64,000 nucleotides of DNA from an uncultured Candidatus Binatia bacterium. GTDB lineage: Bacteria > Desulfobacterota > Binatia > Bin18. This document shows positions 14,111 to 64,000 of the stretch, piece by piece; position 1 is the first letter of the stretch; each line of letters begins with the position of its first letter. The notes under the pieces are model-generated. The model was not told the DNA's origin. It made no database searches and saw only the letters and a list, made by a program, of their open reading frames with translations. A program made the position numbers and the translations under genes. Where the stretch lies: positions 1,103,008-1,167,007 of the forward strand of contig OZ243961.1 of NCBI GenBank assembly GCA_965214605.1, read 5' to 3'.

Positions 14111-14143
14111 ACCGAACAGTCACCAGAATCGTAACTGTTCGGT
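14111..14143. promoter_or_regulatory. perfect 10-bp inverted repeat ACCGAACAGT-N13-ACTGTTCGGT about 140 nt upstream of the hydantoinase A gene
   Basis: Read directly from the sequence. It lies in the AT-richer non-coding DNA preceding ATG 14281. Operator-like symmetry; the binding factor is unknown. Confidence 0.3.
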
Positions 14144-14280
14144 GACCTGTATGTGGAGAACGCAGACATGCACAGTTACGATGTTGATCGAATCCGCTTG
14201 CGGAATGCTTACGCTAACGGAAGTTTGCAAATGTTACTAGAATTTTTGTTCTTTTAAAAGAATAATGAAAACAATCTGTT

Positions 14281-16341: not shown

Positions 16342-16704
16342 ACGTGGCGGGAGGAAAGCAAGCTAGAGCATGGATGAACAGTCCCTCGACCTTGCTCAAC
16401 GAGCAGTCATCGCCTTGGCAACGGTGCCAAAGCCTGAAAAGCCTGAGATGTCTCCCGGTGACTGAGTAGCCCTGAGAGTCGGCATGTCCCACGGTTTGCT
16501 CATTGTCTGGGGCTTCTGTAAGGTGCATACTAGAGAGTGGAGAATGACTAGACGTTCGCGCAACGCAAGAAAGAAAAGTAGGCACTCTATCCACCCGGTA
16601 TGACCTGCACGTGGTCGAGTTGACAGACAGCGAGTTCCAGAACCTTGACGACAACCTAGTGCAGCCCCTGCTCCTCTTCGGCATCAATTGCACCTGACAC
16701 ATCT

Positions 16705-17400
16705 ATGACAGTAGCCTCCCCCCTTCTCCCCGACCCAATAGCCAAGCTGGTCGCTGGCGCCTTAGCCTTCCGCCAGGACGAATACGGAGCTGGCAGCAGC
16801 CTCATGCCCCGTTTGGCCGCTGGCCAGCAGCCCCACGTCCTGATGATTGGATGCAGCGACTCGCGCGTTGATCCGGCCCTACTCTGCGGTACAAGGCCTG
16901 GCGATCTATTCGTTGTTCGCAATGTCGCTAACCTAGTGCCGGCCTATGACCAGCGCGACAGCCTGGGCCAGGGGGTGCGCGCAGCTCTCGAATATGGCGT
17001 GAAAGCGCTGAAGGTTTCACACATCGTCGTGCTCGGCCACTCCCACTGCGGCGGCATCCGGGTCCTGATTGATACAGCCCGAGGCAGAGCGCCTGCATTT
17101 GAATGTATCGGCCCATGGCTCAGCCTGGCCGGCGATGTCTGCGACCGAGTGTTGAAGCAGCTGGCCGCGGATTCCTCAAAACATGTGACCACAGAGCAGC
17201 TGCCAACCTACGCTCCGCTGGTCGAGCGCCAAGCCGTCCTGCACTCTCTTCACAACCTCCGCACTTATCCCTGGATCAGCACCAGAATCGCCAGCGAGAC
17301 ATTGAGCCTACACGGCTGGTGGTTTGATCTCGATTCCGGGCGGCTATGGACGACCCAAGCGCCGGCTTCGGACAAGCTCACCCTGCTTGAGGCCGAGTGA
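16705..17400 (+). CDS. beta-class carbonic anhydrase
   Basis: IGCSDSRV and GHSHCGG zinc-ligand motifs. 231 aa. Confidence 0.9.
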   Translation: MTVASPLLPDPIAKLVAGALAFRQDEYGAGSSLMPRLAAGQQPHVLMIGCSDSRVDPALLCGTRPGDLFVVRNVANLVPAYDQRDSLGQGVRAALEYGVKALKVSHIVVLGHSHCGGIRVLIDTARGRAPAFECIGPWLSLAGDVCDRVLKQLAADSSKHVTTEQLPTYAPLVERQAVLHSLHNLRTYPWISTRIASETLSLHGWWFDLDSGRLWTTQAPASDKLTLLEAE

Positions 17401-17480
17401 ATGAGTCCCTGGCCGTCGGCTTTTCTCTAAGCGCCCTATCTGGTAGCTGAAGGGGAGAGTTGGCAGAGAGGAGCACAACT

Positions 17481-19370
17481 ATGCGCGACGTGAACATCGC
17501 TACTATTCCAGACCTTGAGGTTGACCCGGTAACGCTCGACATCATTGAGAGTGCGCTCAAGAACTATCGCTACGAAATGGACGCGGTGCTGTACCGTACC
17601 GCCATGTCGCCCGTTATTCGGGAACAGCACGACGAGTTTCCGATGATTTGCGACCCCAACGGTCGGATGGTCGTCGGCCAGTTCGGCTCGTATATCCGGG
17701 AGATGATGGACGGCTTCGACCGTCCAATCTACCCCGGCGATGTTATCCTGCTCAACGACCCCTATCTGTGCGGCGGAGCGATCTCGCATATCAACGATTT
17801 TTTGGTTTTAGTCCCGATCTTTGACGGCGATGAGCTAATCGGCTGGACGTCGATGTTTGGCCACCAAATGGATGTCGGTGGCCCTCTGCCCGGCTCTTTT
17901 CCGACCAACGCCACCTCCATTTTTGGCGAGGGGCTGCGTATCCCACCGGTCAAGCTGTTTGAGAAGGGCGCCCTGAACGAGGATATCTTGCATTTGATTC
18001 TCAACAATGTGCGCATCCCGATCATGAACCGCTCCGATCTGATGGGCATTGTGGCCGGCTGCAAAACCGCCGAGCAGAGAGTCACAGAGCTGTGTGAGCG
18101 GTTTGGCCGCGACACGTATTTGGCTGCTTGTCAGGCCCTGCTCGACCGCACCCGGCGAGCCATGCAGACGCTCATCAAGCGCAATATTTCGACCGAACCG
18201 CAGTCTTTTGAGGACTATGTTGACGACGACGGGCTAGGCAACGGACCGTTCAAAATGAAACTCACTATTTGGCGTGAAGAGGAGAAAGTCGTCTTCGACT
18301 GGACCGGCACAGACCCGCAGGCGGCCGGGCCGATTAACTTCTACCTGAACGAAGGTATGTTCAAAATGTTCATCGGCGTCTACCTGATCATGGTCTATGA
18401 CCCGCAGATTCTGTTCAACGACGGCTTTTATGATCTGATTGAGGCGCGCTTGCCCGACGGCTCCCTGCTCCACCCCAAGTTTCCAGCGGCCCTCGGCTGC
18501 CGCACCCACGCCCTAGCTCGGCTGTTTGACGTGATGAGCGGTTGCCTCGGCCAGAAGAGCCCCGAGCTGACCACCGCGGCTGGCTACGGCACCAGCCCCC
18601 ACCTGCTGTATAGCGGAACCGACAAAAAGGGGGAGTTTTTCTTTATTATGGAGATCAGCTACGGCGGCATCCCGGGCCGACCGGTCGGCGACGGCATAGA
18701 CGGCCATTCGTGGTGGCCGCTGTTCACCAATATTCCGACTGAGTATTTGGAGAGCTACTGCCCACTGCGGATTGATCGTTACGCCTCGGTGATGGATTCC
18801 GGCGGAGCCGGCCTGCACCGCGGAGGCAATGGCATAGATAAATGGTATACTTTTCTAGAACCCGGTGAGATCGCCATTCATGACGATCGTTGGTTGACCC
18901 CGCCGTGGGGGATCTTGGGCGGCAAGCCGGGCATGCGGTCCAAAAAAATCCTGATTCGTACAGATGGCAGCCAAGAAGTCTTGCCCTCGAAGTGCGATCA
19001 AATCAAAGTTGAGTCAGGTGACCAACTGATCTACCAGACAGCTGGCGCCGGAGGTTGGGGAGACCCGCTGAAGCGAGCGGCAGAGAAAGTGCGCAGCGAT
19101 GTGGTGCGGGATCTGGTGTCTGTTGACAAGGCGCGGCGCGAGTACGGTGTTGTGCTTGATCCAGACACCGCTCAGGTCGATCAAGACGCCACCGGTCAGC
19201 TGCGTGAACAGCTGGCCCAAAAGCGGGACGAGCAGCCCACCTTTGACTTCGGTCCCCCATTGCCCGAGTTGCTTGCTCGTTGCAAACAAGAAACCGGTTT
19301 GGAGCCGCCGACTCCGCCGAGCCTGCCGGACAACTGGGCCGTCAATGGAGCCAAGAAACGGGCGGCCTGA
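17481..19370 (+). CDS. hydantoinase B / oxoprolinase family protein (HyuB-like)
   Basis: EVDPVTLDIIESAL..., NDPYLCGGAISHINDF and SGGAGLHRGGNG motifs typical of HyuB. ATG 17481 is preferred over the TTG at 17460. Confidence 0.9.
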   Translation: MRDVNIATIPDLEVDPVTLDIIESALKNYRYEMDAVLYRTAMSPVIREQHDEFPMICDPNGRMVVGQFGSYIREMMDGFDRPIYPGDVILLNDPYLCGGAISHINDFLVLVPIFDGDELIGWTSMFGHQMDVGGPLPGSFPTNATSIFGEGLRIPPVKLFEKGALNEDILHLILNNVRIPIMNRSDLMGIVAGCKTAEQRVTELCERFGRDTYLAACQALLDRTRRAMQTLIKRNISTEPQSFEDYVDDDGLGNGPFKMKLTIWREEEKVVFDWTGTDPQAAGPINFYLNEGMFKMFIGVYLIMVYDPQILFNDGFYDLIEARLPDGSLLHPKFPAALGCRTHALARLFDVMSGCLGQKSPELTTAAGYGTSPHLLYSGTDKKGEFFFIMEISYGGIPGRPVGDGIDGHSWWPLFTNIPTEYLESYCPLRIDRYASVMDSGGAGLHRGGNGIDKWYTFLEPGEIAIHDDRWLTPPWGILGGKPGMRSKKILIRTDGSQEVLPSKCDQIKVESGDQLIYQTAGAGGWGDPLKRAAEKVRSDVVRDLVSVDKARREYGVVLDPDTAQVDQDATGQLREQLAQKRDEQPTFDFGPPLPELLARCKQETGLEPPTPPSLPDNWAVNGAKKRAA

Positions 19371-50659: not shown

Positions 50660-51841
50660 ATGGTGCCCGAGCCCGTTCTCGAACAGATTTCTCTGAGCTT
50701 TGATCAACTCCTCGCTCGTGCGGGTGAGGGCGCACAGCTGTCTGCCGCCCAGGGTTATCGCCTAATCCACTGTACGGACGAGGAGTTCCCGGCCTTGTTG
50801 GCGGCTGCGGGCGACCTGCGTGATTGTCACAAAGGGCAGACAGTCACCTACTCACGCAAGCTCTTTCTACCGGTCACCAATCTGTGCCGAGATCGTTGCT
50901 CGTACTGCACCTTTCGTAAGGACCCACGCGATCCCGCCGCCTGGACTATGACGCGCAACGACCTCCACCAGTGGCTCTCCCGAGGTCAAGCCCAGGGTTG
51001 TAAAGAAGCCCTGATGTGCCTGGGCGACAAGCCCGAACTGGTCTCTCGGGCGTACCGCACCACGTTGGCCGATTTAGGCCACCGGACGACAACCGAATAC
51101 ATCTACGAAGCGTGCCAGATTGCGCTGTCATACGGCATTCTGCCCCACACTAACGCGGGCATCCTGAGCTACGACGAGATGCAATGGCTCAAAGATGTGA
51201 ATGTGAGCTTAGGCCTGATGCTGGAAAATATCAGCCCTCGGTTACGCCAACGCGGTATGGCCCATTTTTCAGCTCCGGACAAAGAACCCGCCGTTCGGGT
51301 CAAGATGATCCGCGAAGCTGGTGAGCTGGAAATTCCCTTTACGACCGGAATTCTGATTGGCATTGGAGAGACGCGCGAGGAAGTGGTCGACAGTCTGCTC
51401 GCCATCCGTGACATCCACCAGGAGTACGGCCACATTCAAGAGGTCATCATCCAGAATTTTCGGGCCAAACCTGATACCCGCATGGCCGACGCTCCCGAGC
51501 CGGAGGGCCTGGAAGTGGCCAAAACGGTGGCCGTCGCCAGGCTGTTGCTCGGTGGGCAGATGAACGTCCAAGCTCCGCCCAATCTCAACCCGGTCGATCA
51601 TCGCCTCCTGTTGCGTGCTGGCATTAACGACTGGGGAGGGATCTCGCCGGTCACCAAAGACTACGTCAATCCCGAAGCGGTCTGGCCACATCTAGACACC
51701 CTGGCCCAGACCTGTCGAGAGGAGGGTTTCTGGCTGCGTGAGCGACTGGCCATTTATCAAGAGTATATTGATCGGCCCGGATTTCTCCTGCCGGCCCTGC
51801 GTCCACGGACTGAGGCATTACAGGCCCAGATCAGCGCCTAA
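50660..51841 (+). CDS. cofG: 7,8-didemethyl-8-hydroxy-5-deazariboflavin (FO) synthase subunit CofG
   Basis: Radical-SAM CRDRCSYC motif and CofG-like length. First gene of the cofGHDE run. Confidence 0.9.
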   Translation: MVPEPVLEQISLSFDQLLARAGEGAQLSAAQGYRLIHCTDEEFPALLAAAGDLRDCHKGQTVTYSRKLFLPVTNLCRDRCSYCTFRKDPRDPAAWTMTRNDLHQWLSRGQAQGCKEALMCLGDKPELVSRAYRTTLADLGHRTTTEYIYEACQIALSYGILPHTNAGILSYDEMQWLKDVNVSLGLMLENISPRLRQRGMAHFSAPDKEPAVRVKMIREAGELEIPFTTGILIGIGETREEVVDSLLAIRDIHQEYGHIQEVIIQNFRAKPDTRMADAPEPEGLEVAKTVAVARLLLGGQMNVQAPPNLNPVDHRLLLRAGINDWGGISPVTKDYVNPEAVWPHLDTLAQTCREEGFWLRERLAIYQEYIDRPGFLLPALRPRTEALQAQISA

Positions 51842-51912
51842 GAAGGCTGTCCTCTCGTCCCTTTTTGGTCTGAAGTATTGACGTTTTTCGCTCCACAATA
51901 AGGAGACCTACT

Positions 51913-53199
51913 GTGGCAACCGACGGTCTTGCGAGTATTCTTGAACATATCGATCCTCAGGTCAGCACGATTCTGCACCGGGCCTTGGAGGGACAAGAAG
52001 TGTCCTGGCAGGAGGCACTGCTTTTGTGCGAGACAAATGGGCTCGATCTCCAGGCCGTGTGTCTAGTCGCGGATGAGATGCGCCGGCGTCAAGTCGGCGA
52101 GGTGGTGACGTATGTGATCAACCGGAATATTAACTTCACCAACGTCTGCATTAAACACTGCACCTTCTGCGCTTTTAGCCGTGAATATCGTGAAGAACAA
52201 GGCTATTTTCTCCCCGAAGAGGAAATTATCCGGCGGGCTCAACAAGCTGTTGATATGGGTGCCACCGAGGTGTGTATGCAGGCCGGCCTGCCGCCCAAGA
52301 TGAAGGGCGAGCTGTATATCGATCTGACCCGAGCAGTGAAAAAGGCCCTCCCGGACCTGCATATTCATGCCTTCTCCCCTGAAGAGGTCTTGTACGGCGC
52401 AACGCGGGCGGCGGTCTCGATTCCCAACTATCTAGCCGCCCTCAAGGACGCGGGCTTGGATACCCTGCCCGGCACGTCGGCCGAAATTCTTGACCAGGAC
52501 ATTCGTGATCGTATTGCCCCGGGGCGCATCACCACAAAACAGTGGATTGAGGTCATCACGTCCGCCCATGGCCTCGGCATTCCAACGACCTCAACGATCA
52601 TGTACGGCCACATCGAGACCCCGATACATTGGGTCAAGCATATGAATCTGCTACGTGATATCCAGAAGGAAACCGGAGGCTTTACCGAGTTCGTTCCCCT
52701 GTCCCTGATTCACCAAGAAGCACCCATGTACCAGCGCAAACTGATCAAAAACATGCGTCAAGGCGCAACTGGCACAGAAGTCATTAAAATGCACGCAGTC
52801 GCCCGCCTCATGCTCGGCCCGACGTTTCGGAATATCCAGTCATCGTGGGTCAAAGAGGGCCCAAAGCTGGCTCAGTATCTGCTGAATATAGGGGCCAACG
52901 ACCTGGGCGGGACCTTGATCAACGAGAGTATTTCCACCTCTGCAGGCGCCCAGTATGGGCAGCTCGTCCCGCCTAAAGAACTCCGTCGTCTGATCCGTGA
53001 TATTGGCCGGACTCCGGCTGAACGTGGCACTACATACACGCTCCGAACAATCTTCAACGGCCAGGACGAAGAGTTAAGCCCGCTCGACATGGTCGAAAAT
53101 CCGGACGAGCAGTTCGGTTCCTATCGGAAGCTGACCGCCTCGGATCAGTTCCGCTACGTACATCCCTTTGAACGCGAGAAGCAAGCGGCTTCTCACTAA
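51913..53199 (+). CDS. cofH: FO synthase subunit CofH
   Basis: Radical-SAM CIKHCTFC motif. AAGGAGA SD before GTG 51913. Confidence 0.9.
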   Translation: MATDGLASILEHIDPQVSTILHRALEGQEVSWQEALLLCETNGLDLQAVCLVADEMRRRQVGEVVTYVINRNINFTNVCIKHCTFCAFSREYREEQGYFLPEEEIIRRAQQAVDMGATEVCMQAGLPPKMKGELYIDLTRAVKKALPDLHIHAFSPEEVLYGATRAAVSIPNYLAALKDAGLDTLPGTSAEILDQDIRDRIAPGRITTKQWIEVITSAHGLGIPTTSTIMYGHIETPIHWVKHMNLLRDIQKETGGFTEFVPLSLIHQEAPMYQRKLIKNMRQGATGTEVIKMHAVARLMLGPTFRNIQSSWVKEGPKLAQYLLNIGANDLGGTLINESISTSAGAQYGQLVPPKELRRLIRDIGRTPAERGTTYTLRTIFNGQDEELSPLDMVENPDEQFGSYRKLTASDQFRYVHPFEREKQAASH

Positions 53200-53235
53200 C
53201 ATCACCGGGCGGCATGCCCTTTCCCCCAGATCAGC

Positions 53236-54189
53236 ATGCCACGCTGTGACGATCTCAGCATTACCGCTCTTGCTGGAGGGGTGGGTGCCGCCCGTTTCTT
53301 ACGTGGCCTAGTACGTGTCATCAATCCGGCCAATCTGAGTGTGGTGGTGAACACTGGCGATGATGACGAATTTTTTGGCCTATACGTGTCTCCAGACCTC
53401 GATACCATCACCTATACGCTCGCCGATGCTGTCGACCATGACAAAGGCTGGGGTCTGCCGGACGAGAGCTTCCACTGTCTTAGCGGGTTGAGACGCTATT
53501 ATCCCGAGACCTGGTTTAGTCTGGGTGACGCCGACCTAGCGACCCACCTGTTTCGGACTCAGCAGCTGAGACAAGGGCACACCCTGAGCCAAGTCACCGC
53601 CGCTATTGTCCAAGCCTGGGACGTGCGCGCCACGGTCTTACCGATGAGCAACGATCCGGTCCGGACGGTGGTCCACACCGAAGCGGGTGCTCTGCCGTTT
53701 CAGGAATATTTTGTCAAAGGTCGGGGTGAAGGTCGGGTCGAACGCATCGAGTTACGAGGGCTGCCGGACGCCCGCCCGGCGCCGGGCGTGTGTGAGGCGA
53801 TCCAGTCTGCACATTTGGTGATTCTCCCGCCCAGCAACCCGTTGGTGAGCATCGGGCCTATTCTCGGCCTACCTGGCGTCCGCGACGCCCTGCGCCAAAC
53901 CCCAGCGTTGGTTGTCGGCATCAGTCCATTGGTAGCCGGTAAGCCGATTAAAGGGCCGGCCGACCGTATGCTCAGTGGCCTCGGCATTGAAGCCTCGGCG
54001 ACTGGAGTGGCCGGCCTGTACGCCGACTTTCTGGACGCTTTCGTGATCGATACGCAAGATGCGGCTCAACGGGCCAGACTTGAAGCCCAGGGGCTGATGG
54101 TTCGGGTAACCGATACAATTATGAGTGATATGGAGAAATCAATTGCCCTGGCCCGGACGGCTGTTGAACATATGAAACGTGAAACATAG
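53236..54189 (+). CDS. cofD: 2-phospho-L-lactate transferase
   Basis: ITALAGGVGAARFLRGL N-terminus and NTGDD motif typical of CofD/FbiA. Confidence 0.9.
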   Translation: MPRCDDLSITALAGGVGAARFLRGLVRVINPANLSVVVNTGDDDEFFGLYVSPDLDTITYTLADAVDHDKGWGLPDESFHCLSGLRRYYPETWFSLGDADLATHLFRTQQLRQGHTLSQVTAAIVQAWDVRATVLPMSNDPVRTVVHTEAGALPFQEYFVKGRGEGRVERIELRGLPDARPAPGVCEAIQSAHLVILPPSNPLVSIGPILGLPGVRDALRQTPALVVGISPLVAGKPIKGPADRMLSGLGIEASATGVAGLYADFLDAFVIDTQDAAQRARLEAQGLMVRVTDTIMSDMEKSIALARTAVEHMKRET

Positions 54190-54232
54190 GAGGGATATCT
54201 CCTAGGCCGCTGTATCCCCGAAGGATTCTAAT

Positions 54233-54985
54233 ATGAGTACGATCGCACTCATCCCTATCCCCGATATTCCCCAAATTCAACCCGGTGACGATCTGGTCTC
54301 GCTCCTTCTCGACGCGATTGATCGGTCCAAGGTCGGCCTCAAAAACGGCGATATTCTGGTTATGTGCCAAAAAATCGTCTCCAAAGCCGAGGGTGCAGTG
54401 GTTGATTTGAAGACCGTCGAACCTTCGTCTTTTGCCCACCAGATTGCAGACCAGTGGGAAAAAGACCCCCGTATCGTCGAGGTTGTGCTACAGGAGAGCA
54501 AGCGGATCGTGATGATGAAAAATGGAGTAGTGATAACCGAAACAAAACAGGGCTGGGTGTGTGCTAACTCGGGAGTCGATGCGTCAAATACCCTAGCCGA
54601 CGATATCGTCATCGTCTTGCCTAAAGATCCTGACCGGTCGGCCAAAAGCATGCGGGTCGCTATTCAAGAACGCCGCAATATTTCGATCGGGATCGTTATC
54701 ACCGATACCTTTGGCCGTCCGTGGCGTGACGGTCTGGTCGAGTTTGCGCTGGGCGTCTCGGGATTTGAGGGCCTGCTTGACATGCGCGGCAGTGAAGACC
54801 TCCAGGGCCGAGAACTGCACCATACCATCGTCTCGGTTGCTGACGAACTCGCCTGCGCCGCCGGCCTGCTGATGGAAAAGAACGCGGCCGTACCGGCCGT
54901 GATTGTTCGTGGTTACAAGTACACTCCGGCCGAGGGCAGCGGACAGGTCTTGATCCGGCCGGCCGAGGCGGATTTGTTTCGCTAA
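54233..54985 (+). CDS. cofE: coenzyme F420-0:L-glutamate ligase
   Basis: PIPDIPQIQPGDDL..., GDILVMCQKIVSKAEG and ITDTFGRPWR motifs. 250 aa stand-alone (archaeal-type) form. Confidence 0.9.
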   Translation: MSTIALIPIPDIPQIQPGDDLVSLLLDAIDRSKVGLKNGDILVMCQKIVSKAEGAVVDLKTVEPSSFAHQIADQWEKDPRIVEVVLQESKRIVMMKNGVVITETKQGWVCANSGVDASNTLADDIVIVLPKDPDRSAKSMRVAIQERRNISIGIVITDTFGRPWRDGLVEFALGVSGFEGLLDMRGSEDLQGRELHHTIVSVADELACAAGLLMEKNAAVPAVIVRGYKYTPAEGSGQVLIRPAEADLFR

Positions 54986-55327: not shown

Positions 55328-55430
55328 ATTTATTGTCGTACTCTAGGCGCTCACCGTTCACTCCTGCTGAGAGGATCTCGCTATCCCAAAGCGTTCTCTG
55401 AACCTGAGCAAGTTGCATCCCGGCCAGGCC

Positions 55431-56648
55431 ATGACGACGAGACAAGATAGAAGCTCTCTCACTCTCCAAAGCCTGTTGCTTGCCGTCTGCCTAGTCCTGT
55501 CGACCGTTCCGGGCTTCTCGTCTCCACCCCCCGGTGTCAGCCTCATCGAGGGCAGTCTGACCCCTTTTTTTCACAATCGGCCCCTTTCGGCCTTTCGGGT
55601 CTACGCATTCCACGGCCACACTCCGCACCCGATTCCGTTTCAGATCGACGAACGGGACCAACGAGAGCGCTGGATTGTGAGGCACGGTTCAAAAGCCAAG
55701 CAGGACAGCCCTGCCGCGGTGTTTGACGCCAACGACGCCATTGTGGTGATGAACCGCGACCTGGGGCAGCGTGGCGACCCGTCCGTTCTTCCGGACCAGG
55801 CCAAGCGCTGGGCCGAGATCCGGGTCGGAGAAGAGACGAACCGGCTGGGTTTTGTCTATGTCGGGGTCTTTCCCCCAACACACACCCCACCACGCATCAC
55901 CCAGCCTTACGCCCGCTACGACCCGGCCACCGACCGGATCTATGCCGAGCGCTACGCCCTGGCCTTTGACGCGCCACTGCCAACCCATTTTGCTCCGGTT
56001 GAGCGGCTCGGCCACTTTGGGACCAATACTATAACCGGAGTCAAAGCCGGCGCCGAGGTCCGCTTGCTAGGCGGTTTGCTACGCTTCCAGCGTACCGAGG
56101 TCGATCTACGCAGCAGCTTGCGTGGCTACCAGTCCGGCCCGGTTCGGGTAATCCGCCAGGCGCGCTACTGGGTGCCGCTGCCGTTTGGCCTGCGCACCTC
56201 GGGCAAGGTCAATCTCATTTTCTACCGGGACTTTGTTGAGGGCAGCGCACGGATCAAGCTGAAAATCCCGCCCCGCCTCGTGCTGGCGGAGGGCGAATTC
56301 ACGACCTATTTTGACTTTCTGGACCTGCGCGGGGCGCGTCCGCTGCTGAATGGCCGCCTGAGCCGCTGGGCGGCACTGTGCCTACCGAGCGGCCGGACAC
56401 TTGTTCTTATTCCCCGGCTTGAGGACGGCTTGAGCAGGCTTGAGCAGCGCGTCTATTACGGTGGCGCTCAGCCCCATTTCGGCTTTCAGTTTTCGGAAAT
56501 TGGTCGTCTGGAGAGCGGCTCGCATCGCCTATCGGTTTTCGGCCTGCTGCTCGACACGACCGCCCCGGACACGGTTCAGCGGGCCGCCGATATCTTTCTC
56601 TCCCCCCCCCAAGTGGCCGCGCAGCTACTCAATGCCCAGCTGGACTAG
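55431..56648 (+). CDS. hypothetical exported protein
   Basis: ATG 55431. The signal-like segment LLLAVCLVLSTVPGFSS and about 400 aa with no motif I recognise. A C9 run at 56602-56610 encodes SPPQ near the C-terminus. Confidence 0.6.
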   Translation: MTTRQDRSSLTLQSLLLAVCLVLSTVPGFSSPPPGVSLIEGSLTPFFHNRPLSAFRVYAFHGHTPHPIPFQIDERDQRERWIVRHGSKAKQDSPAAVFDANDAIVVMNRDLGQRGDPSVLPDQAKRWAEIRVGEETNRLGFVYVGVFPPTHTPPRITQPYARYDPATDRIYAERYALAFDAPLPTHFAPVERLGHFGTNTITGVKAGAEVRLLGGLLRFQRTEVDLRSSLRGYQSGPVRVIRQARYWVPLPFGLRTSGKVNLIFYRDFVEGSARIKLKIPPRLVLAEGEFTTYFDFLDLRGARPLLNGRLSRWAALCLPSGRTLVLIPRLEDGLSRLEQRVYYGGAQPHFGFQFSEIGRLESGSHRLSVFGLLLDTTAPDTVQRAADIFLSPPQVAAQLLNAQLD

Positions 56649-57716
56649 AGACCAGGCGGCAACCGCCATCTGACGACACTGTTCCCTATAGCCCAACGCC
56701 TGAGGCGAGCTGGCGTTGCCGTCAAGTCCGCGCTTGTACACCCCCTGGATAATGGCGCCAATACGGAACAGGGCAAATACAATGTAGAAGGTCCAGTTCG
56801 GAATCTGCTTTCGTCCGGTCAGCTGGCAGTAGCGCGCCACATAGTCGTGCTCAGACGGAATCCCATAGCTGGCGTAATTAAGCCCAGTGATATCGCCCCG
56901 AATATCATCCGGCACATGGTAGGGGAGACAGTTGTGGGCCAAGTCGGCAAATGGAGCACCGAGCGTACTCAACTCCCAATCGACGACCGCCAACACACGC
57001 GGTTCGGTCGGATGAAAGATTATATTCTCTAAACGAAAGTCACCGTGGGAGATTGTGGTTTCGTCATCGACTGGCAGATGCTCGGGCAGCCACGCTATGA
57101 GCCGTTCCATCTCTGGAATATCTTCGGTTCTGCTGGCCGCATACTGTTTTGTCCAACGGTCAACCTGACGCGCCATATAGCCGCCAATCCGTCCATAGCC
57201 CTCTAGGCCAACCGCCCGAAAATCAACCTGGTGCAGGGCGGCGATCGCCTCGACCATTGCCGCATACACCCGTCCCCGCTCGTTCGGCGTCATATCACGC
57301 AGCTCATAGCCGCGTAACACCCGTCCATCAATAAAATCCATCAGATAGAAATCTGTGCCGATCACAGACGGGTCTTGACACAGCACGTAGGGCTTGGCGA
57401 CCGGCACGTCGGTGTTGCACAGCGCTGAAATGATCCGAAACTCCCGGTCAACCGCATGGGCCGAGGGCAGCAGCTTGCCAGGCGGCTTTTTACGCAGCAC
57501 GTAGCGCCGGCCGGCCGTATCCGTCAACACAAAGGTCGGGTTCGACATACCGCCCCGAATCTGTCCAACATGCATGGGTGGGGTGAAGTCGGCTAGGTGT
57601 CGGCACATATAACGCTCAAGGTGAGCCTGGTCGAAGTGGTGTTGCTCAAGCACCGGGGCGGTATCGGTGGTCAGCGAAACCAGCGGTAATGCCTCGGCCT
57701 GAGCGTTGGTCGCCAT
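56625..57716 (-). CDS. phosphotransferase (APH/ChoK-like kinase, ACAD10/11 N-terminal-type) family protein, paralog 1
   Basis: AAGGAGAG SD 6 nt before ATG 57716. Motifs GGMSNPTF, HGDFRLENIIF and VVDWELS (Brenner/APH catalytic loop). Confidence 0.85.
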   Translation of the reverse strand: MATNAQAEALPLVSLTTDTAPVLEQHHFDQAHLERYMCRHLADFTPPMHVGQIRGGMSNPTFVLTDTAGRRYVLRKKPPGKLLPSAHAVDREFRIISALCNTDVPVAKPYVLCQDPSVIGTDFYLMDFIDGRVLRGYELRDMTPNERGRVYAAMVEAIAALHQVDFRAVGLEGYGRIGGYMARQVDRWTKQYAASRTEDIPEMERLIAWLPEHLPVDDETTISHGDFRLENIIFHPTEPRVLAVVDWELSTLGAPFADLAHNCLPYHVPDDIRGDITGLNYASYGIPSEHDYVARYCQLTGRKQIPNWTFYIVFALFRIGAIIQGVYKRGLDGNASSPQALGYREQCRQMAVAAWSLVQLGIE

Positions 57717-57739
57717 CGGTATCTCTCCTTGTCCGTCGC

Positions 57740-58828
57740 TCATACGCCCCGCTCAACCAAGTCCCAGGCGGCGGTCGCCAACTGCTTGCACTTTTCACCA
57801 CGGGTGATGGCTTCGGGCGAGCTGGCATTGCCATCAAGCGCCCGTTTGTACACCCCCTGGACAATTGCCGCCAGTCGGAAGAGCGAAAACACCACGTAGA
57901 AGTTCCAGTTTTCAATAGCCGAGCGGTCCATCTGTTGGCAGTAGCGAGCCACGCACTCCTGCTCAGATGGAATGCCGTAGGTGGTAACATTGAGGTGGGT
58001 GATGTCCCCCCGGATATCGTCCGGCACCTGATAGGGTAGACAGTTATAGGCCAAATCGGACAGGGGCGCACCGAGCGTACTCAGCTCCCAGTCAACAACG
58101 GCTAACACCTGGGGCTGGGTGGGATGAAACAGCAGGTTCTCTAAGCGAAAATCGCCATGCACAATCGTGGTCTCATCGTCATCCGGCAGATGCTCGGGCA
58201 GCCAGGCTATGAGCCGTTCCATGGCCGGCAGCTCATCCGTTTTGCTCGCCTCGTACTGCTTGGACCAGCGCCTGACCTGGCGGCCCATATAGCCGCCGAT
58301 CCGACCGTAGTCCTCAAGCCCAACCGCCCGGAAATCAACCTGATGGATCTTGGCCATAGTATCAATCATGGTTTCATACACCGCCCGCCGCTCGCTCGGA
58401 GCGAGGTCGGGCAGCTCATACCCACGAAACACGCGACCCTCAACAAAATCCATAATATAAAAATCCACACCCAGCACTAACGGGTCCTGACACAGGACAT
58501 GCGGTTTGGCGACCGGCACATCAGTATCCCACAGAGCCGAGATGATTCGAAATTCTCGGTCAACCGCGTGGGCCGAGGGCAGTAGCTTGCCAGGCGGTTT
58601 TTTGCGCAGCACGTAACGCCGTCCAGCCCCATCCGTCAAGATGAAGGTCGGGTTCGACATCCCGCCCCGCACCTGTCCAACCGATAGCGGCGGACTGAAG
58701 GCCTCGATATGTTCGGCCATGTAGCGCGCCAGCGCGGCCTCATCAAAACGATGCTGGTCAAGCACTGGAGCAGTCTCAGCCGTGAGCGAAGTGAGCGGGC
58801 TGGTCTCTACTGCCTGGATTGTCGCCAT
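57740..58828 (-). CDS. phosphotransferase (APH-like kinase) family protein, paralog 2
   Basis: AAGGAGAG SD before ATG 58828. Roughly three quarters of residues are identical to paralog 1 by eye, including the block RRYVLRKKPPGKLLPSAHAVDREFRIISAL. Confidence 0.85.
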   Translation of the reverse strand: MATIQAVETSPLTSLTAETAPVLDQHRFDEAALARYMAEHIEAFSPPLSVGQVRGGMSNPTFILTDGAGRRYVLRKKPPGKLLPSAHAVDREFRIISALWDTDVPVAKPHVLCQDPLVLGVDFYIMDFVEGRVFRGYELPDLAPSERRAVYETMIDTMAKIHQVDFRAVGLEDYGRIGGYMGRQVRRWSKQYEASKTDELPAMERLIAWLPEHLPDDDETTIVHGDFRLENLLFHPTQPQVLAVVDWELSTLGAPLSDLAYNCLPYQVPDDIRGDITHLNVTTYGIPSEQECVARYCQQMDRSAIENWNFYVVFSLFRLAAIVQGVYKRALDGNASSPEAITRGEKCKQLATAAWDLVERGV

Positions 58829-58933
58829 CGCACGTCTCTCCTTTTTGGCGCTGACAAGATGCTCAAGTGGCCTCGTCCACGAATTGTTCCCCTAGTTCAA
58901 TCACCCAACAATAGGTATCGTCAAGGCGAGCGT

Positions 58934-59491
58934 TCAGCCAACGCGAGTTTGTCGCTCACGACCAAGGGTCACGATCCGCAACGTCCCGTCAACCTGTTCG
59001 AGCACCGTACAGGAGCAGTGATCCGGTTCAAAACACACCATCCGCTCATCTTTCCTCGCCACCCCCACCGCAGCATTGATGGCCACAAAATGGGTCGTGA
59101 TCAAGCTCGACGTTTGTAGGCTGCACAGAAAAGCGACCAGGTGCTCCTTCCAGTCCTGATAGAACTGCGGCAGGTCACTCCAGCGGCCGCGCAAGGCGCG
59201 GCGAATCCAGGCCGCGCGTTCGGCAAGATCTTGGCCAGGCGAAGGAATTTCGGCCACCACAGGCTCAATCCGCGCCTCACACTTCCACCTCCTCTCAAAC
59301 GGAACGGCGGTATCGCGGGCGCGCTGCAGCGGACTGCTAATCAGAGACAGGCGGCCGAGCGGTTCGAGCCGTTTTGCCAGGGCTGCTGCCTGGCGGTGTC
59401 CAAGCTCATTGAGTCCAGGGTCTGGATCTTCCCCAAATCCGGCTTGAGGCTGGCCGTGGCGGACGAGGTAGAGTTTGGGAGAAGACGGCAT
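58934..59491 (-). CDS. histidine phosphatase family protein
   Basis: LYLVRHGQP (RHG catalytic motif). GAAAGGAA SD before ATG 59491. Confidence 0.85.
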   Translation of the reverse strand: MPSSPKLYLVRHGQPQAGFGEDPDPGLNELGHRQAAALAKRLEPLGRLSLISSPLQRARDTAVPFERRWKCEARIEPVVAEIPSPGQDLAERAAWIRRALRGRWSDLPQFYQDWKEHLVAFLCSLQTSSLITTHFVAINAAVGVARKDERMVCFEPDHCSCTVLEQVDGTLRIVTLGRERQTRVG

Positions 59492-59735
59492 CGTGTATTC
59501 CTTTCGTGCCAAAAAATGGGCAGCCATGTTGCTTTTCGGGGGAGGGTGAGAACCTCTTGTTCGGCCTTAGAGTTATCCACTAGGTGGCTCAGCAAGGATA
59601 CTTTTGCCTAAAAAATCAGGGCCAGATGGCCGCTTCAGGGCCCTCCCCAGTGCAGGTACTCCAGTGTGGCACGATACATGCCTTTTCTCTACTGTACGAT
59701 GCCTCCACACTCACCCGGCAGGACAGGGAGAGACC

Positions 59736-60810
59736 ATGTATGACGCATGGGAGGGCTGGCTATGCCCGGGGGGTGACGCAATGTTCCCTCCTGAGGGGAC
59801 ACCGCGGCCAGCTGCAGAATTACTGCCGGAAAAGATTCAAGGTCTGCCCGATGGAGAAATTCTCCGTCTGCAGGAAGCGGCCGAAGGCACTCTGCTGAAT
59901 ATGGGATTCACCTCATAGCAGCTATAGCGACGGGACTGGGATGGAAAAAATCGGGCCGTTTGATCCACTGCCACGGATCATTGACGCACCGGAGCGGGCG
60001 GACATGGGTTGAGCGTGGCCTCAAGCAGCGCCGACAGACCCTAAAACTTTTCATCGACGCTATTTACCACGACTCAAAAATCTTCAAGGACAGCGTTATC
60101 CTCGAAGAGACTGTTCGGCCACCAGGGTTCGCCCCTCGTGTGTCAGCCTTGATCCCTCGTGAGACCTGGGGTGCCATATTACTGTCACCGAATCCGAGAC
60201 CGCGACAGCCAAATCTCCATCTTGGAAGATAACCTTCGCTGCCCATCCGAGGCCTCCTAGGGACTTCACTGACAGCCCATGAAGCGGACCTTCCCTTGGT
60301 CTTTGAAGCCTCTCAGAGCCGCCCGGTTGGGACTTACCCGGACCGCCCCGCTGTCCTTAGCCCCAGGCTCGCCTGAACACGCAAACGGTCGCAGCGGTGC
60401 TCCAACTCAGCCTCTTTTGAGTCTTCGTTTCCAGCTTAGCAAACGGGTGTTGAGTCGGGCGAGAGGGGGGGGGGGACAGCCAACGGATTTGTCCAAACGC
60501 GAACGCCCCTAGGGAGCGAGCGTGTTGTCTTGCCGGATTGATGATGATTTTCTTGATCCAAAGGGCGGGGCTGACTCAATGTCCGGCATCCTGGGCATCA
60601 TGGATGTCTACAAAGCTGGCCCCATCGGTCGACGCCTCCGGCACGGACATTACCGACGAGAAGGTCATCTGCGGCTATGTACAATCTGTCTGTGTCGGGA
60701 AGCCTCTAAATCGCCACTGCGCCTTGGAGCATTTTGAGCAGGATCGAAGAGGGCATAGTTTGCTGTCTAGGCCAATTGGCGGATCTATCCCAGCAGCCGG
60801 GGGATTGGCC
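59736..60810 (+). pseudogene. decayed circularly permuted type-2 ATP-grasp gene (multiple frameshifts/stops, 3' truncated)
   Basis: Fragments in three frames are collinear with the intact paralog at 61694-64000:
- GEILRLQEAAEGTLLNMGFTS*
- GPFDPLPRIIDAPE
- WVERGLKQRRQTLKLFIDAIYHDSKIFKDSVILEE
- L..NPSLPIRG...LPLVFEASQSRPVGTYP
- CRIDDDFLDPKGGADSMSGILGIMDVYKAG
- LAPSVDASGTDITDEKVICGYVQSV. Confidence 0.75.
60465..60475. repeat. homopolymeric G11 tract inside the ATP-grasp pseudogene
   Basis: Counted directly (gagag, then 11 G, then acagc). Confidence 0.95.
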
Positions 60811-60812
60811 GA

Positions 60813-61697
60813 TTAGGCCCGTTTTGCCTCGACCGCCACCTCCAGACTATGCGTCCCACCACCGAAGGCCACCCCTTTTAAGGGCGTCACATCGCTGTAA
60901 TCTCGACCCCAGGCCAGGACGACATGTTGGTCGGTTGGAATCAGGTTATTGGTCGGATCAAAATCCACCCAGCCCTGACCAGGGCTGTAGACCGACACCC
61001 AGGCGTGGGAAGCCGCGGCTCCAATCAAGGACGCCGAGTTAGCCTGGCCAGACGCTGGCACGGTTTCGAGATAGCCGCTGACATAGCGGGCGGCCAGGCC
61101 TAAGGATCGAAGACACGCAATAGCCAGCTGAGCATAATCCTGACACACCCCCCGGCGATGGGACAAGACCTCGTAGACCGAAGTCGCCGCGTTGGTGAAG
61201 TCAGGGTCATAGGTCAGGTCGTGATATATGCGCTCCATCAGCTCGCGGACCGCTTTGAGCAGGCAGCGTCCAGACGAGAACGACGGGGCGGCATATTCGG
61301 CAAAAGCCGAGGCGGCAGCGATCATTGGAGAGTCCAAAACAAATTGACGGGCGGTCAGCTGCTCCGGGGCGAGATTGTGGAGCAGATCCCGGCCGACTTC
61401 CTCCCAGGCCAGCGAAGCCTCCAACGGGGGAGACGCAACAGGACTGAGCAGCACCGTGCTCGACGCGCTTACCTCAAGCACGGTATGAGATTCCTGGATC
61501 GCAAAGTAGACCACCCGGTTGCCAAAAAAATCCTCACGTTCCTGATACACCGTCGGGACCGGATTGATCCGGAGTTGGCTGGTCTGACACTGTTGGCGCT
61601 CAAAAGAGCGCGGCAACAGATAGGCTTCATTCTGACAGTGCGAGACCGGCAGACTATAGCGATAGCGGGTCGTATGGAGGACGGTGTAGGGAATCAT
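60813..61697 (-). CDS. transglutaminase-like cysteine protease/ligase (Bact_transglu_N + transglutaminase core)
   Basis: Conserved N-terminal domain (MIPYTVLHTTRYRYS...) and a Cys-His-Asp core (RRGVCQDYA, ASHAWVSVY, DFDPTNN). The start overlaps the upstream gene stop by 4 nt. Confidence 0.9.
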   Translation of the reverse strand: MIPYTVLHTTRYRYSLPVSHCQNEAYLLPRSFERQQCQTSQLRINPVPTVYQEREDFFGNRVVYFAIQESHTVLEVSASSTVLLSPVASPPLEASLAWEEVGRDLLHNLAPEQLTARQFVLDSPMIAAASAFAEYAAPSFSSGRCLLKAVRELMERIYHDLTYDPDFTNAATSVYEVLSHRRGVCQDYAQLAIACLRSLGLAARYVSGYLETVPASGQANSASLIGAAASHAWVSVYSPGQGWVDFDPTNNLIPTDQHVVLAWGRDYSDVTPLKGVAFGGGTHSLEVAVEAKRA

Positions 61698-64000
61698 ATC
61701 CGATGTCCCATCAATTGTTGTTGGGCTTCGATATGGCTGAAGTAGGTCTGACTCAGGGCGTCGGAAAGGGCTAGCAGAAAGGCTCCGAGCTGGGCAAACA
61801 GTTCGTCTAGCTTTTCATACACCGGCTCTTCCCACACCGTCTGCGACAGCCCCTCAATATCCGTTGTGCGCAGCTTGGTCAGGGCTTGCAGCGCGAGGCG
61901 CTGGACCGGGCTGCGGTGCGGCAAGCTGGCCTTGCGAGGCAAGCGCTCGGCATGCTCCTGGAGGCGGACGAGCTGATAGCCGAGCGAGCGGGGGTTGCTC
62001 TCATCGTGCAATAACAGGTCGAGCACAGCCTGGGCGTCTATCTGGCTGTAATAGCGCCGCCGATAGGTCCGTCGGCTGTCGGTCATGGTCAGCACCACCT
62101 CCCACAGGCCACTCTGACCGCCAGTTGTCATCTCGCAGGCGATATGCAGCAGACTGATGGAGTGCAGGGCACGTTCCAGCCGCCGGCCCATCTCCAGAAA
62201 TCGAAAACCTTGGCCCCGGATCATGTTTTCAGCCATCAGCCCGGTAAAGGCGGCCAGCCCGGCGATCACCCGAGACAGGCTTTGCAAGGTCTGCTCCAGG
62301 CTCAGCCCCGAGGAGAGATCCCGGTCAAGCGTGTGCAGCATCCGGACCGTATCGTCGGATAGACGATCACGGACTGTCCGCTCGGCCTGCAACAGGGCGT
62401 CAAGCGTAAAACGCAAACTGCCCGGGCGCGTCGGCTCAAGGATGACCGCCAGCAGCTCGGGCTCGTCAGCCACCAACCGCCGGTTGACGCCATGGCTCAC
62501 CAGGTGCAGATAAGTCACTGCTTGATGGGTCACCGCGGACAACAATCCCGGCAAATAGGTATCATGATGGACGACCTCGGTGTCCAGCAGACGCGACAAC
62601 ATCTCCCGATACACTCGGGCGCTGCTCTCCATGCGCTCGGTATAGCGTCCGAGCCAAAACAGATTATCGGCCACTCGGCTCGGAATCTCTCCGCCACTCC
62701 GTGTCAGGGCAACCGGCCGCTCGGTCGAGGGCAACAGACTCACTGTCTGTTCGGGCTCTGAGGCCAAGACCCAGATATCCTTACTCACCCCGCTATCGTG
62801 ACTCGACACCTGCCAGACATCCGGGTCGGGCGCCACCCGCGCCAGCCCACCTGGCATCACCACATAACCATCGTTCCGCGCCACCAAAAAACTGCGCAAC
62901 ATCAGGGGACGCGGTGCCAGTCTCCCATCCACAAAAGTCGGGGCGGTGGACACCGTAATCGGCTCTTGAGCAACGTAACGGTGCGGCTGAGCTTTGATGC
63001 GGGCCATGAGGGCTTCTCGCTCGGCCGCGGACAGCTGAGCACCAAAGACAGCTTCAGAGCCGGCATGCGGAACGGTCGGTTTAATCACCAGACGCTCCAG
63101 ATGGGCTAGCACATAGCGCCGCTCCTCCTCCCCACCACACCACCAAGTGGCAACAGACGGCAGGTGCAAATCCTGTCCCAGGAGTTCTCTGCAGAGGACC
63201 GGCAAAAAGGCCAGCAGACCAGGATTTTCGAGGATGCCGACGCCCAGCGGATTGGCAACTACGGTCTGATGCGTGCGCGTCACTTGGACCAGCCCAGGGA
63301 TGCCCAGCAGCGAGTCTTTGCACAGCTCCAGCGGATCACAAAACGTATCGTCAACCCGCCGCAATACGGCGTCAACCCGCTGGAGGCCGTCCAGGGTTTT
63401 GAGCCACAGACACCCGTCTCGGACGGTCAAATCGCTCCCCTGGGCCAAGGTGTAGTCGAGGTATTGGGCGACATAAGCGTGTTCAAAATAGGCCGCGTTC
63501 CCCGGCCCCGGCGTCAACAACACAGTCCGGCCCGGCTCCTCTCGGTGGGGGACTAGGGTGGCCAGGGAGCTGCGCAAGGCCCGAAAATACAGGGCCAAGC
63601 GATGGACATGGGCATCACGGTACAAACTCGGAAAGACCCGCGATAGGGTCAGTCGGTTCTCCAGGGCATAGCCGGCACCTGAGGGCGCTTGGGTCCGGTC
63701 GTCAATGATCCGTATACTGCCGTCACGGGAGCGGACAAAATCAGCCGCATAGGAAAACAGAAAACGCCCGGACGGCGGACTGATAGTGACACAGGCGCGT
63801 AAAAATCCGGGATGGCTATAGATCAAATCAAGCGGCAAGAAGCCCTGTCTGACAAGTTTCTGTGGGCCATACAGGTCGGCCAGAATAAGATTATACAGCT
63901 CAGCGCGCTGAATCAGACCGCGTTCAATACCGCTCCACTCCTGGCTAGTCAGCAGGACCGGGATCAGATCAAGCGCCCACGGCCGCTCCCCGCCTCGAGT
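61694..64000 (-). CDS. circularly permuted type-2 ATP-grasp domain fused to alpha-E domain; 5' end lies beyond the window
   Basis: The reading frame stays open from 63838 to the window edge (TRGGERPWALDLIPVLLTSQEWSGIERGL...). ATP-grasp region: APSGAGYALENR, RRVDDTFCDPLEL. Alpha-E region: ADNLFWLGRYTERMESSARV. Confidence 0.85.
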   Translation of the reverse strand, partial: TRGGERPWALDLIPVLLTSQEWSGIERGLIQRAELYNLILADLYGPQKLVRQGFLPLDLIYSHPGFLRACVTISPPSGRFLFSYAADFVRSRDGSIRIIDDRTQAPSGAGYALENRLTLSRVFPSLYRDAHVHRLALYFRALRSSLATLVPHREEPGRTVLLTPGPGNAAYFEHAYVAQYLDYTLAQGSDLTVRDGCLWLKTLDGLQRVDAVLRRVDDTFCDPLELCKDSLLGIPGLVQVTRTHQTVVANPLGVGILENPGLLAFLPVLCRELLGQDLHLPSVATWWCGGEEERRYVLAHLERLVIKPTVPHAGSEAVFGAQLSAAEREALMARIKAQPHRYVAQEPITVSTAPTFVDGRLAPRPLMLRSFLVARNDGYVVMPGGLARVAPDPDVWQVSSHDSGVSKDIWVLASEPEQTVSLLPSTERPVALTRSGGEIPSRVADNLFWLGRYTERMESSARVYREMLSRLLDTEVVHHDTYLPGLLSAVTHQAVTYLHLVSHGVNRRLVADEPELLAVILEPTRPGSLRFTLDALLQAERTVRDRLSDDTVRMLHTLDRDLSSGLSLEQTLQSLSRVIAGLAAFTGLMAENMIRGQGFRFLEMGRRLERALHSISLLHIACEMTTGGQSGLWEVVLTMTDSRRTYRRRYYSQIDAQAVLDLLLHDESNPRSLGYQLVRLQEHAERLPRKASLPHRSPVQRLALQALTKLRTTDIEGLSQTVWEEPVYEKLDELFAQLGAFLLALSDALSQTYFSHIEAQQQLMGHRI

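Follow-up and report, generated by a model that had tools for sequence, protein, structure and literature searches.

A translationally coupled gene pair encoding a fused ATP-grasp/Alpha-E protein with a remodelled active site and a transglutaminase-like enzyme in a Binatia-like bacterium

We analysed a 64,000-nucleotide stretch of contig OZ243961.1 (positions 1,103,008 to 1,167,007, assembly GCA_965214605.1; referred to here at its full length as the window), at one end of which lie two translationally coupled genes of a Binatia-like bacterium that form an operon. The leading gene of the two fuses a circularly permuted (CP) ATP-grasp domain to an Alpha-E domain, and the second encodes a transglutaminase-like cysteine enzyme. 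The domain identity of this two-gene module is near certain. Comparison with unfused relatives showed that the Glu and Asn expected to bind Mg2+ in an ATP-grasp ligase are replaced throughout the fused family, from which we infer that the family is not a canonical ligase. Both genes of the pair are under purifying selection, and they adjoin the decayed remnant of a canonical unfused module. As a tentative explanation, which we regard as a serious possibility though short of probable, the pair would consist of a remodelled, probably non-ligase fused subunit and an active transglutaminase-fold enzyme that acts on amide bonds.

The fused gene and its transglutaminase partner

The minus-strand frame that closes at the TGA at 61694-61696 showed no earlier stop up to base 64000 and holds 768 sense codons. 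An internal TTG start in the open reading frame (ORF) listing is a consequence of the lister requiring a start codon. The original prediction had described a fused gene of more than 768 codons that reaches the window edge, and both the open frame and the Pfam domains agree with this. All 768 residues of the window fragment (768/768) were identical to a database protein of 847 amino acids (aa) (P0001; NCBI and ENA, encoded on a 4.31-Mb contig). This protein supplied the missing N-terminus, whose recovery had been proposed as a check: the first 79 codons of the fused gene lie beyond the window edge, and the full product is 847 aa long. The motif NLFWLGRYTERMESSARV was found in the translation of the fused gene.

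The four domains that had been proposed for annotation with profile models (CP_ATPgrasp_2, Alpha-E, Bact_transglu_N and Transglut_core) were all matched, at E-values well outside what chance would give. Among the circularly permuted ATP-grasp families (Pfam PF14403 / PF04174), CP_ATPgrasp_2 matched the fused protein over profile positions 1-374 of 374 with 499 bits against a cutoff of 32 (E 9e-150), and CP_ATPgrasp_1 matched at E 1.5e-95. Among solved structures, PDB 3N6X alone was related to the ATP-grasp half, with E 1.3e-81 over P0001 residues 48-491. The Alpha-E domain (PF04168) scored 240 bits against a cutoff of 20.8 (E 4e-71). Within its WLGRYTER motif the W, G, R, Y and E are invariant and the last R is near-invariant (at least 90%), and an AlphaFold2 model of the domain was all-helical (predicted local distance difference test score, pLDDT, 85.9). 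A scan of NCBIfam returned no model for the fused protein. In PADLOC, neither the fused protein nor the transglutaminase matched an anti-phage defence model, which gives no link to a defence system.

The stop of the fused gene and the ATG of the transglutaminase gene overlap by 4 nt as ATGA (...CGG ATA TGA / ATG ATT...; CGGATATGATTCCC), exactly as had been predicted. With this overlap, the window has the co-directional transglutaminase gene directly downstream that characterizes the ATP-grasp/Alpha-E/transglutaminase system. The 294-aa product (database protein P0139) matched Bact_transglu_N (PF08379) at 2e-24 with 86 bits and Transglut_core (PF01841) at 2e-22 with 80 bits. Its Cys185, His231 and Asp247 line up with the triad of the solved relatives 3ISR and 6G49, which confirms the earlier claim of an intact Cys-His-Asp triad. 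The same triad is conserved in 37-39 of the 42 transglutaminase genes from related loci. The positions of all features of the locus are collected in Table 1.

Table 1. Positions of the features of the operon and of its decayed neighbour in the window
Feature	Position	Strand	Basis
Fused CP-ATP-grasp/Alpha-E gene, 3' 768 codons and stop	61694..64000	-	Open frame, Pfam, identity to P0001
Circularly permuted ATP-grasp domain, fragment aa 14-390	62831..63961	-	CP_ATPgrasp_2 9e-150, 3N6X, hhalign
Remodelled Mg2+-site motif IIDDRTQAPSG	63677..63709	-	Aligns to canonical VLEDNxRxPSG
LVIKP, ATP-grasp lysine retained; following GSGGxG loop replaced by TVPHAGSEAVFGA	63077..63091	-	
Alpha-E domain, fragment aa 440-754	61739..62683	-	Pfam PF04168, E 4e-71
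WLGRYTER 'ER' motif within Alpha-E	62633-62656	-	
Transglutaminase-like cysteine enzyme gene, 294 aa (Bact_transglu_N and Transglut_core)	60813..61697	-	Pfam, triad alignment, dN/dS
Triad codons Cys185, His231, Asp247	61143-61145, 61005-61007, 60957-60959	-	Aligned to 3ISR, 6G49
Pseudogene, 5' two-thirds of a canonical unfused CP-ATP-grasp gene; converges on the transglutaminase gene	59740..60741	+	
Junction of ~1.38-kb deletion	60742..60771		blastn with L047 segment, L047-L050 gene map

The active site of the fused family

Fused and unfused proteins were compared by protein alignment, anchored motif extraction and hhalign, which aligned the fused ATP-grasp domain to the unfused clade with a probability of 100% and gap-free through the motifs. 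A fast MAFFT alignment of 166 sequences blurred the motifs and was replaced by the anchored extraction and hhalign. Residues were mapped from the motif pattern and published residue roles, and a PDB profile search with the unfused clade gave only 3N6X. In ATP-grasp enzymes the D...E-x-N residues are Mg2+ ligands, and the Glu is called strictly conserved (PMC2427367).

At this site, the unfused proteins read V-L-E-D-N-x-R-x-P-S-G, whereas the close fused members read z-D-R-T-Q-A-P-S-G, in which z is Gly (72), Asp (39), Ser or Ala and the Arg is present in 117/121. E-x-N was found in 34/34 proteins of the unfused clade, compared with 0/121 close fused members and 0/113 diverse representatives. 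The window protein carries D-D-R in place of E-D-N (Glu to Asp, Asn to Arg), and its relatives carry Gly, Ser or Ala at the Glu position. The residue at the Glu site differed even between close relatives (D, G, S), which argues that the position is unconstrained. The position +4 from the Mg2+-binding acid was Arg in 27/34 unfused proteins and Gln in 121/121 fused proteins; in LdmS a catalytic Arg lies four residues after the Mg2+-binding acid (PMC9486568). The upstream Asp was retained, as AADFVR in the window and as AADxxR in 116/116 fused members.

In the diverse set, the motif anchor was located in 113 of 150 representatives, where the Mg2+-site motif was the only one cleanly re-tested, and the comparisons of the lysine/glycine-loop, Arg and ADDK/LENP motifs rest on the close fused set. 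The unfused K-P-V-x-G-x-G-G-x-G (35/35) corresponds to K-P-I-F-P-H-P-S-T-A-T-V-F-G-A in that set, the unfused R-H-x-D-L-R to R-P-M-V-L-R, and the unfused loop G-x-G-x-A-D-D-K (35/35) to G-S-G-V-L-E-N-P. Within LENP, the Glu was found in 105/105 and the Asn in 98/105. In the more distant fused proteins L004, L006 and L007 (L numbers denote contigs and loci compared with the window) the lysine was also gone.

The window protein has neither the Mg2+-ligand signature of an ATP-grasp ligase nor its combination of lysine and glycine-rich loop, of which the lysine alone is retained. Given the loss of the Mg2+-binding Glu and Asn, joined in the close set by that of the glycine-rich loop, we read the fused protein as a probable non-ligase. 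The label of peptide ligase given to this gene in the original prediction is doubtful on the same grounds, with E-x-N changed to x-D-R across the family. The Pfam text for CP_ATPgrasp_1 presumably speaks of 'catalytically active and inactive versions'. The familywide loss of catalytic residues argues for treating the fused and unfused forms differently in biochemistry.

Decay of the canonical module and selection on the pair

The intact ATP-grasp protein of the syntenic relative L047, encoded at L047 14450-15955 on the minus strand, matched window positions 59775-60626 in three reading frames. L047 DNA and window 58701-60680 were 79% identical, and their nucleotide alignment showed at least 15 frame-breaking indels between 59740 and 60741. 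The conceptual translation of this pseudogene retains LEDN and RIDDDFLDP, and a translation whose frames were stitched by eye matched CP_ATPgrasp_1 at 8e-23. Positions 2150-3533 of L047 had no window counterpart in blastn, and the alignment resumed at 60772, just before the transglutaminase stop. What the deletion took away is the last third, at the 3' end, of the unfused ATP-grasp gene together with almost all of the 323-aa gene for Alpha-E.

The independent contigs L001/L051 from another ENA assembly reproduced window 56659-60203 at 100% and 60479-64000 at 99.9%, gap-free. A run of ten G lies inside the pseudogene at about 60466-60476, and both ENA contigs end near it (60203 and 60479), which suggests a site that breaks assembly. 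When the window fused protein was searched against the window by tblastn, the pseudogene was not detected, because it is fragmented and has ~36% identity to the fused protein; the intact L047 protein did detect it. A recent copy of the fused gene was rejected as the origin of the pseudogene, since ~36% identity to the fused ATP-grasp marks it as an ancient paralog of the canonical type and not a recent duplicate.

Binatia-like genomes showed a series of states of the canonical module, which is intact in three of them (L047, L048, L050), has a possible frameshift in L049, is reduced to a pseudogene and a deletion in the window, and is absent from L002 and L003. The fused and transglutaminase pair was present in every one of these states. 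That the pair is retained at every stage of this graded decay within a single bacterial class indicates an independent function for it. The decayed paralog that the original prediction placed beside the pair is therefore real, while its suggestion of dynamic gain and loss holds for loss only, the genes being intact in sister genomes. In L049, a relative otherwise 99% identical, a 1-nt shift splits the Alpha-E gene (13438-14410) into 209-aa and 117-aa ORFs; the cause could be incipient decay or an error of the assembly. In L003, a 1181-aa ORF (13624-17169, minus strand) stands where the unfused ATP-grasp/Alpha-E pair was lost; it encodes a leucine-rich-repeat protein and was rejected as a relative of the pseudogene.

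Selection was measured against three relatives as the ratio of nonsynonymous to synonymous substitution rates (dN/dS). The fused gene showed values of 0.11-0.19 and the transglutaminase gene 0.18-0.20, and the adjacent histidine phosphatase gave 0.21 in the same comparison.

Gene neighbourhoods in related genomes

The closest named genomes were Candidatus Binatia metagenome-assembled genomes, with 78% identity. L047-L049 (87% identity) were syntenic with the window. Their genes for an alpha/beta hydrolase, the fused protein and the transglutaminase run in one direction and are met by genes for Alpha-E (323 aa) and CP_ATPgrasp (501 aa) in the other, followed by a histidine phosphatase and two APH genes that again run in the first direction. 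L050 has the same order with a 1065-aa transglutaminase-DUF2126 protein directly upstream of the fused gene, and L054 has six co-directional genes (ATP-grasp, Alpha-E, transglutaminase, DUF2126, fused, transglutaminase). Only the fused and transglutaminase genes were found in L053, L002, L003 and L004. The alphaproteobacterial loci L005-L007 have DUF2126 followed by the fused gene (and by the transglutaminase), and L008-L046 from Actinomycetota and Acidobacteriota have the classical unfused operon of ATP-grasp, Alpha-E and transglutaminase.

In every unfused locus, and in 12/12 fused-type loci that extend far enough, the transglutaminase gene lay directly 3'. DUF2126 lay directly upstream of the fused gene in L005-L007, L050 and L054 and was absent there from L002-L004, L047-L049, L052 and L053; the upstream side of the window gene lies beyond the edge. 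In L052, a 60%-identical relative, the unfused pair is 5.7 kb off. An ammonium transporter and an NtrBC-like pair, annotated as a GAF-histidine kinase and a sigma-54 activator (L052 1-2765), lie a few kb upstream of the fused and transglutaminase pair, which hints at nitrogen regulation.

No Anbu/proteasome-family gene was found among the window proteins scanned (the side upstream of the fused gene lies outside the window), and Pfam annotation gave no Anbu/proteasome-like gene within 8-10 kb in L003, L047-L050 or L052-L054. The proteasome-like/Anbu or peptidase partners that the original prediction had suggested looking for were seen in none of the annotated fused-type loci. The alpha/beta hydrolase upstream in Binatia relatives was considered as a partner and rejected (gap of ~400 nt, not conserved outside Binatia).

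Distribution and earlier knowledge of the module

The fused architecture is a very large family, and the module is very common and publicly annotated, so that the window instance contributes no new component. It falls in the fused paralog class, whose neighbours in other genomes are a DUF2126 transglutaminase-ligase protein, a canonical unfused module of ATP-grasp and Alpha-E with or without a transglutaminase, or both. In a collection of 5.8 billion proteins, all 8000 scored candidates lay at E<=1e-10, and the best 120 of these 8000 were all CP_ATPgrasp plus Alpha-E proteins of 781-873 aa. They carried source names such as 'circularly permuted type 2 ATP-grasp protein' and 'circularly permuted ATP-grasp superfamily protein/alpha-E superfamily protein'. 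A library of 50%-identity representatives gave 12,181 matches, of which 2,487 were at E<=1e-30; the best 150 of the 12,181 had 38-64% identity, and nearly all of these aligned end to end at about 815-900 aa. The fused form heads both database searches, and its earlier treatment as unusual is not upheld.

The module was described by comparative genomics in 2008-2012. Anbu was linked to the three families in 2008 (PMC3235984), and Iyer et al. 2009 read the families as a peptide synthesis/tagging system, as quoted in later papers (PMC5666114, PMC6376114, PMC3597751). The transglutaminase-like domain was predicted to reverse tags made by the ATP-grasp ligase (PMC3495828). The statement in the original prediction that comparative genomics had proposed a peptide ligation/tagging system is correct on these sources (PMC5666114, PMC6376114, PMC3495828). 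A literature search found no functional characterisation of the fused architecture, in line with the earlier claim that its substrate and role are experimentally undefined.

The proteins of the Anbu operon formed no stable complexes and Anbu showed no peptidase activity (PMC5666114, PMC6376114), and a 2021 paper describes Anbu as without known function. Release of phosphate from ATP was shown for an ATP-grasp protein of an unfused Yersinia operon (PMC6376114); this is the only biochemical datum on an ATP-dependent activity, and it concerns an unfused homolog. PP_2685/PP_2688 of the paralogous unfused module in Pseudomonas were induced on nitrate compared with ammonium, and the domain abundance of the module correlates with urea-metabolism domains (PMC3597751). 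Rv2567 and Rv2411c were negative candidates in a GABA (gamma-aminobutyric acid)-trehalose screen (2026 preprint). The ATP-grasp/Alpha-E/transglutaminase (and Anbu) system has since 2008-2009 been among the most widespread bacterial gene sets without a known role.

Proposed mechanism and alternatives

In the mechanism that we tentatively propose, the fused protein would be a nucleotide- or substrate-binding subunit that provides specificity or regulation and would not itself form amide bonds; of the ATP-grasp residues, it still has the lysine for adenine/phosphate, the Q-E of the hinge and one arginine. The transglutaminase-like protein, cytoplasmic and of papain fold, would be the putative catalytic component and would hydrolyse or transfer gamma-glutamyl/isopeptide-type amide bonds on peptides or proteins. 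The setting would probably be a response to nitrogen limitation. The putative joint action of the two proteins would continue after loss of the canonical ligase genes. With the canonical ligase partner a pseudogene and its Alpha-E gene deleted, the pair would act without that neighbour, and L002, L003, L004 and L053 have the pair without the unfused module.

This proposal can be extended to the family. Thousands of fused proteins may be pseudo-ligases in which the Mg2+/phosphoryl-transfer site was traded for an arginine-based site, each assisting a transglutaminase-fold amidase as its sensor or as the subunit that recruits the substrate, with the pair forming an autonomous amide-cleaving or -transferring unit. 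We consider the extension possible, if somewhat doubtful. If it is true, the window would be a natural experiment, in which the ligase genes are dead and the pair is still under selection.

Several points weigh against the proposed mechanism. The loss of E-x-N is read from aligned sequences. The fused proteins have an invariant LENP where the unfused have ADDK, and an invariant D-R where E-x-N used to be; the two motifs could jointly make up a metal/phosphate site in a new place, with the enzyme still active. The Lys, the Q-E hinge and the Arg, all retained, point to continued nucleotide binding. Other ligase copies, unfused or DUF2126, may be present elsewhere in the genome. The evidence for nitrogen limitation comes from the unfused Anbu-type Pseudomonas operon and not from the fused paralog.

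The main rival is the classical model (Iyer/Aravind), which the original prediction followed. Here the fused protein would be an active ATP-dependent amidoligase with a non-canonical metal site that joins an amino acid or a peptide, as a tag, to the carboxylate of a protein or peptide via an acyl-phosphate; Alpha-E would present the substrate, and the transglutaminase would be the peptidase that takes the tag off. The strong CP_ATPgrasp match and the homology to 3N6X fit this model, as do the strong purifying selection and the conservation of the Lys, the Q-E hinge, the Arg and the upstream Asp (AADxxR, 116/116). A phosphate/metal site could be reconstituted from the new invariant motifs, LENP and D-R, and reversal of the tag by the transglutaminase-like domain is a published prediction (PMC3495828). 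However, the strictly conserved Glu (PMC2427367) is missing: E-x-N is found in 0/121 and 0/113 members of the two fused sets, and the site varies among G, D, S, A and N. In addition, the Asn has become Arg, the +4 Arg an invariant Gln, the glycine-rich loop is lost, and the lysine is lost too in L004, L006 and L007. Fused genes also often adjoin plausible ligase-domain proteins (DUF2126, unfused ATP-grasp). On balance we hold an active fused ligase to be possible, with considerable reservations.

A role in small-molecule amide metabolism appears unlikely. By analogy with known enzymes, the pair would make or break a gamma-glutamyl-amine or glutathionylspermidine-like compound for nitrogen storage or scavenging, in place of tagging proteins. 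The deposition of 3N6X as a 'putative glutathionylspermidine synthase' is consistent with this, and the glutathionylspermidine synthetase-amidase joins an ATP-grasp C:N ligase to a papain-fold Cys-His-Asp amidase (PMC2427367). The nitrogen-limitation induction and the correlation with urea-metabolism domains also fit, and no small Pup-like ORF was noted for the related Rv2566 family (PMC2588565). However, the PDB profile search led to 3N6X only and gave no sequence link to characterised synthetases, the active-site losses of the fused protein apply equally here, and neither transporter genes nor biosynthetic ones accompany the pair consistently.

That the locus is on its way out, with the fused and transglutaminase genes as non-functional leftovers like their neighbour, is very improbable and already largely refuted by the selection data: although the pseudogene and the 1.38-kb deletion adjoin the pair and the Alpha-E gene of L049 may be frameshifted, both ORFs are intact with dN/dS of 0.11-0.20, the pair is kept in L002, L003 and L053, lineages that have lost the unfused module completely, and the nucleotide identity of ~79% for the pseudogene against ~87% for intact genes confines the decay to the pseudogene.

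Other features of the window

The rest of the window is ordinary chromosome, with genes for FtsH, Hsp70, a LeuA-like protein, oxoprolinase A/B, an oligopeptide ABC transporter and F420 biosynthesis. Hydantoinase/oxoprolinase A and B genes flank a 231-aa ORF at 14281-19370 (plus strand). The coenzyme F420 biosynthesis block (50660-54985, plus strand) consists of two radical-SAM CofG/CofH-like genes, CofD (53236-54189) and F420-0:gamma-glutamyl ligase (54233-54985). Closer to the operon, a tandem pair of APH-family phosphotransferase paralogs with a 4-nt overlap between their ORFs (56625-58828, minus strand) adjoins a histidine-phosphatase-family gene (58934-59491, minus strand), and this trio was syntenic in all Binatia relatives examined.

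Pfam matched neither of two long plus-strand ORFs, 1858-3996 (712 aa) and 55413-56648 (411 aa); a counterpart of the second, equal in size, lies in the synteny block of relatives. The segment 12001-14000 showed a locally high GC content (0.659), a strongly negative AT skew (-0.21) and several long overlapping ORFs, without tandem repeats, and the only match of the ORF at 12064-13416 was a C-terminal one to DCC1-like thiol-disulfide oxidoreductase.

Comparison with known systems

The Anbu-type operon (COG2308, COG2307, COG1305 and Anbu; Pseudomonas, Yersinia, cyanobacteria) shares the three families and their order, the transglutaminase gene coming straight after ATP-grasp and Alpha-E (PMC3235984, PMC5666114, PMC6376114); structures of Anbu are available. 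The window differs from it in that ATP-grasp and Alpha-E form a single polypeptide, and in that the ATP-grasp is without the E-x-N and the glycine loop, both of which are kept by the unfused operon proteins. The sole unfused-type copy in the window is the pseudogene, and the window proteins scanned were without the Anbu gene that marks this operon. The one solved relative of the ATP-grasp half, 3N6X (Mfla_0391), falls within the unfused clade (8.5e-201 against the clade's profile), with canonical LEDN, GSGGYG and ADDK and no Alpha-E.

The DUF2126 clusters of the Mycobacterium tuberculosis Rv2566-Rv2567-Rv2569c type have a DUF2126 transglutaminase-ligase, a fused protein and a small transglutaminase, an order also found in L005-L007, L050 and L054. 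Rv2567 presumably has the fused ATP-grasp/Alpha-E architecture. Rv2566 is described as combining a transglutaminase with a carboxylate-amine ligase domain in one fusion protein (PMC2588565). In contrast to these clusters, the closest relatives of the window pair (L047-L049, L002, L003) are without DUF2126 beside the fused gene. Rv2569c, of the COG1305 type, was reported to be a secreted 'serine' protease that cleaves E-cadherin and is insensitive to cysteine-protease inhibitors (PMC11081392), a role with no obvious bearing on an environmental bacterium.

In the Rim/Rlo systems of Pseudomonas (RimK or RloC ATP-grasp, retropepsin and RloB), an ATP-grasp protein is likewise genetically coupled to a transglutaminase-fold protein and to a peptidase (PMC11957051). 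Those systems differ in that their ATP-grasp is RimK-like and non-permuted and RloB is inactive and membrane-bound, whereas the window has a soluble enzyme with an intact triad and no retropepsin. The glutathionylspermidine/trypanothione synthetase-amidase shows no detectable sequence relationship to the window proteins; it is one chain without Alpha-E, and it has the Mg2+ ligands that the fused protein does not. It offers a working analogy, in that an ATP-grasp C:N ligase is teamed with an amidase, of papain fold and with a Cys-His-Asp triad, that takes apart what the ligase makes (PMC2427367), and its D...E-x-N Mg2+ ligands precede the lysines in sequence, as they do in the CP-ATP-grasp family (PMC2427367).

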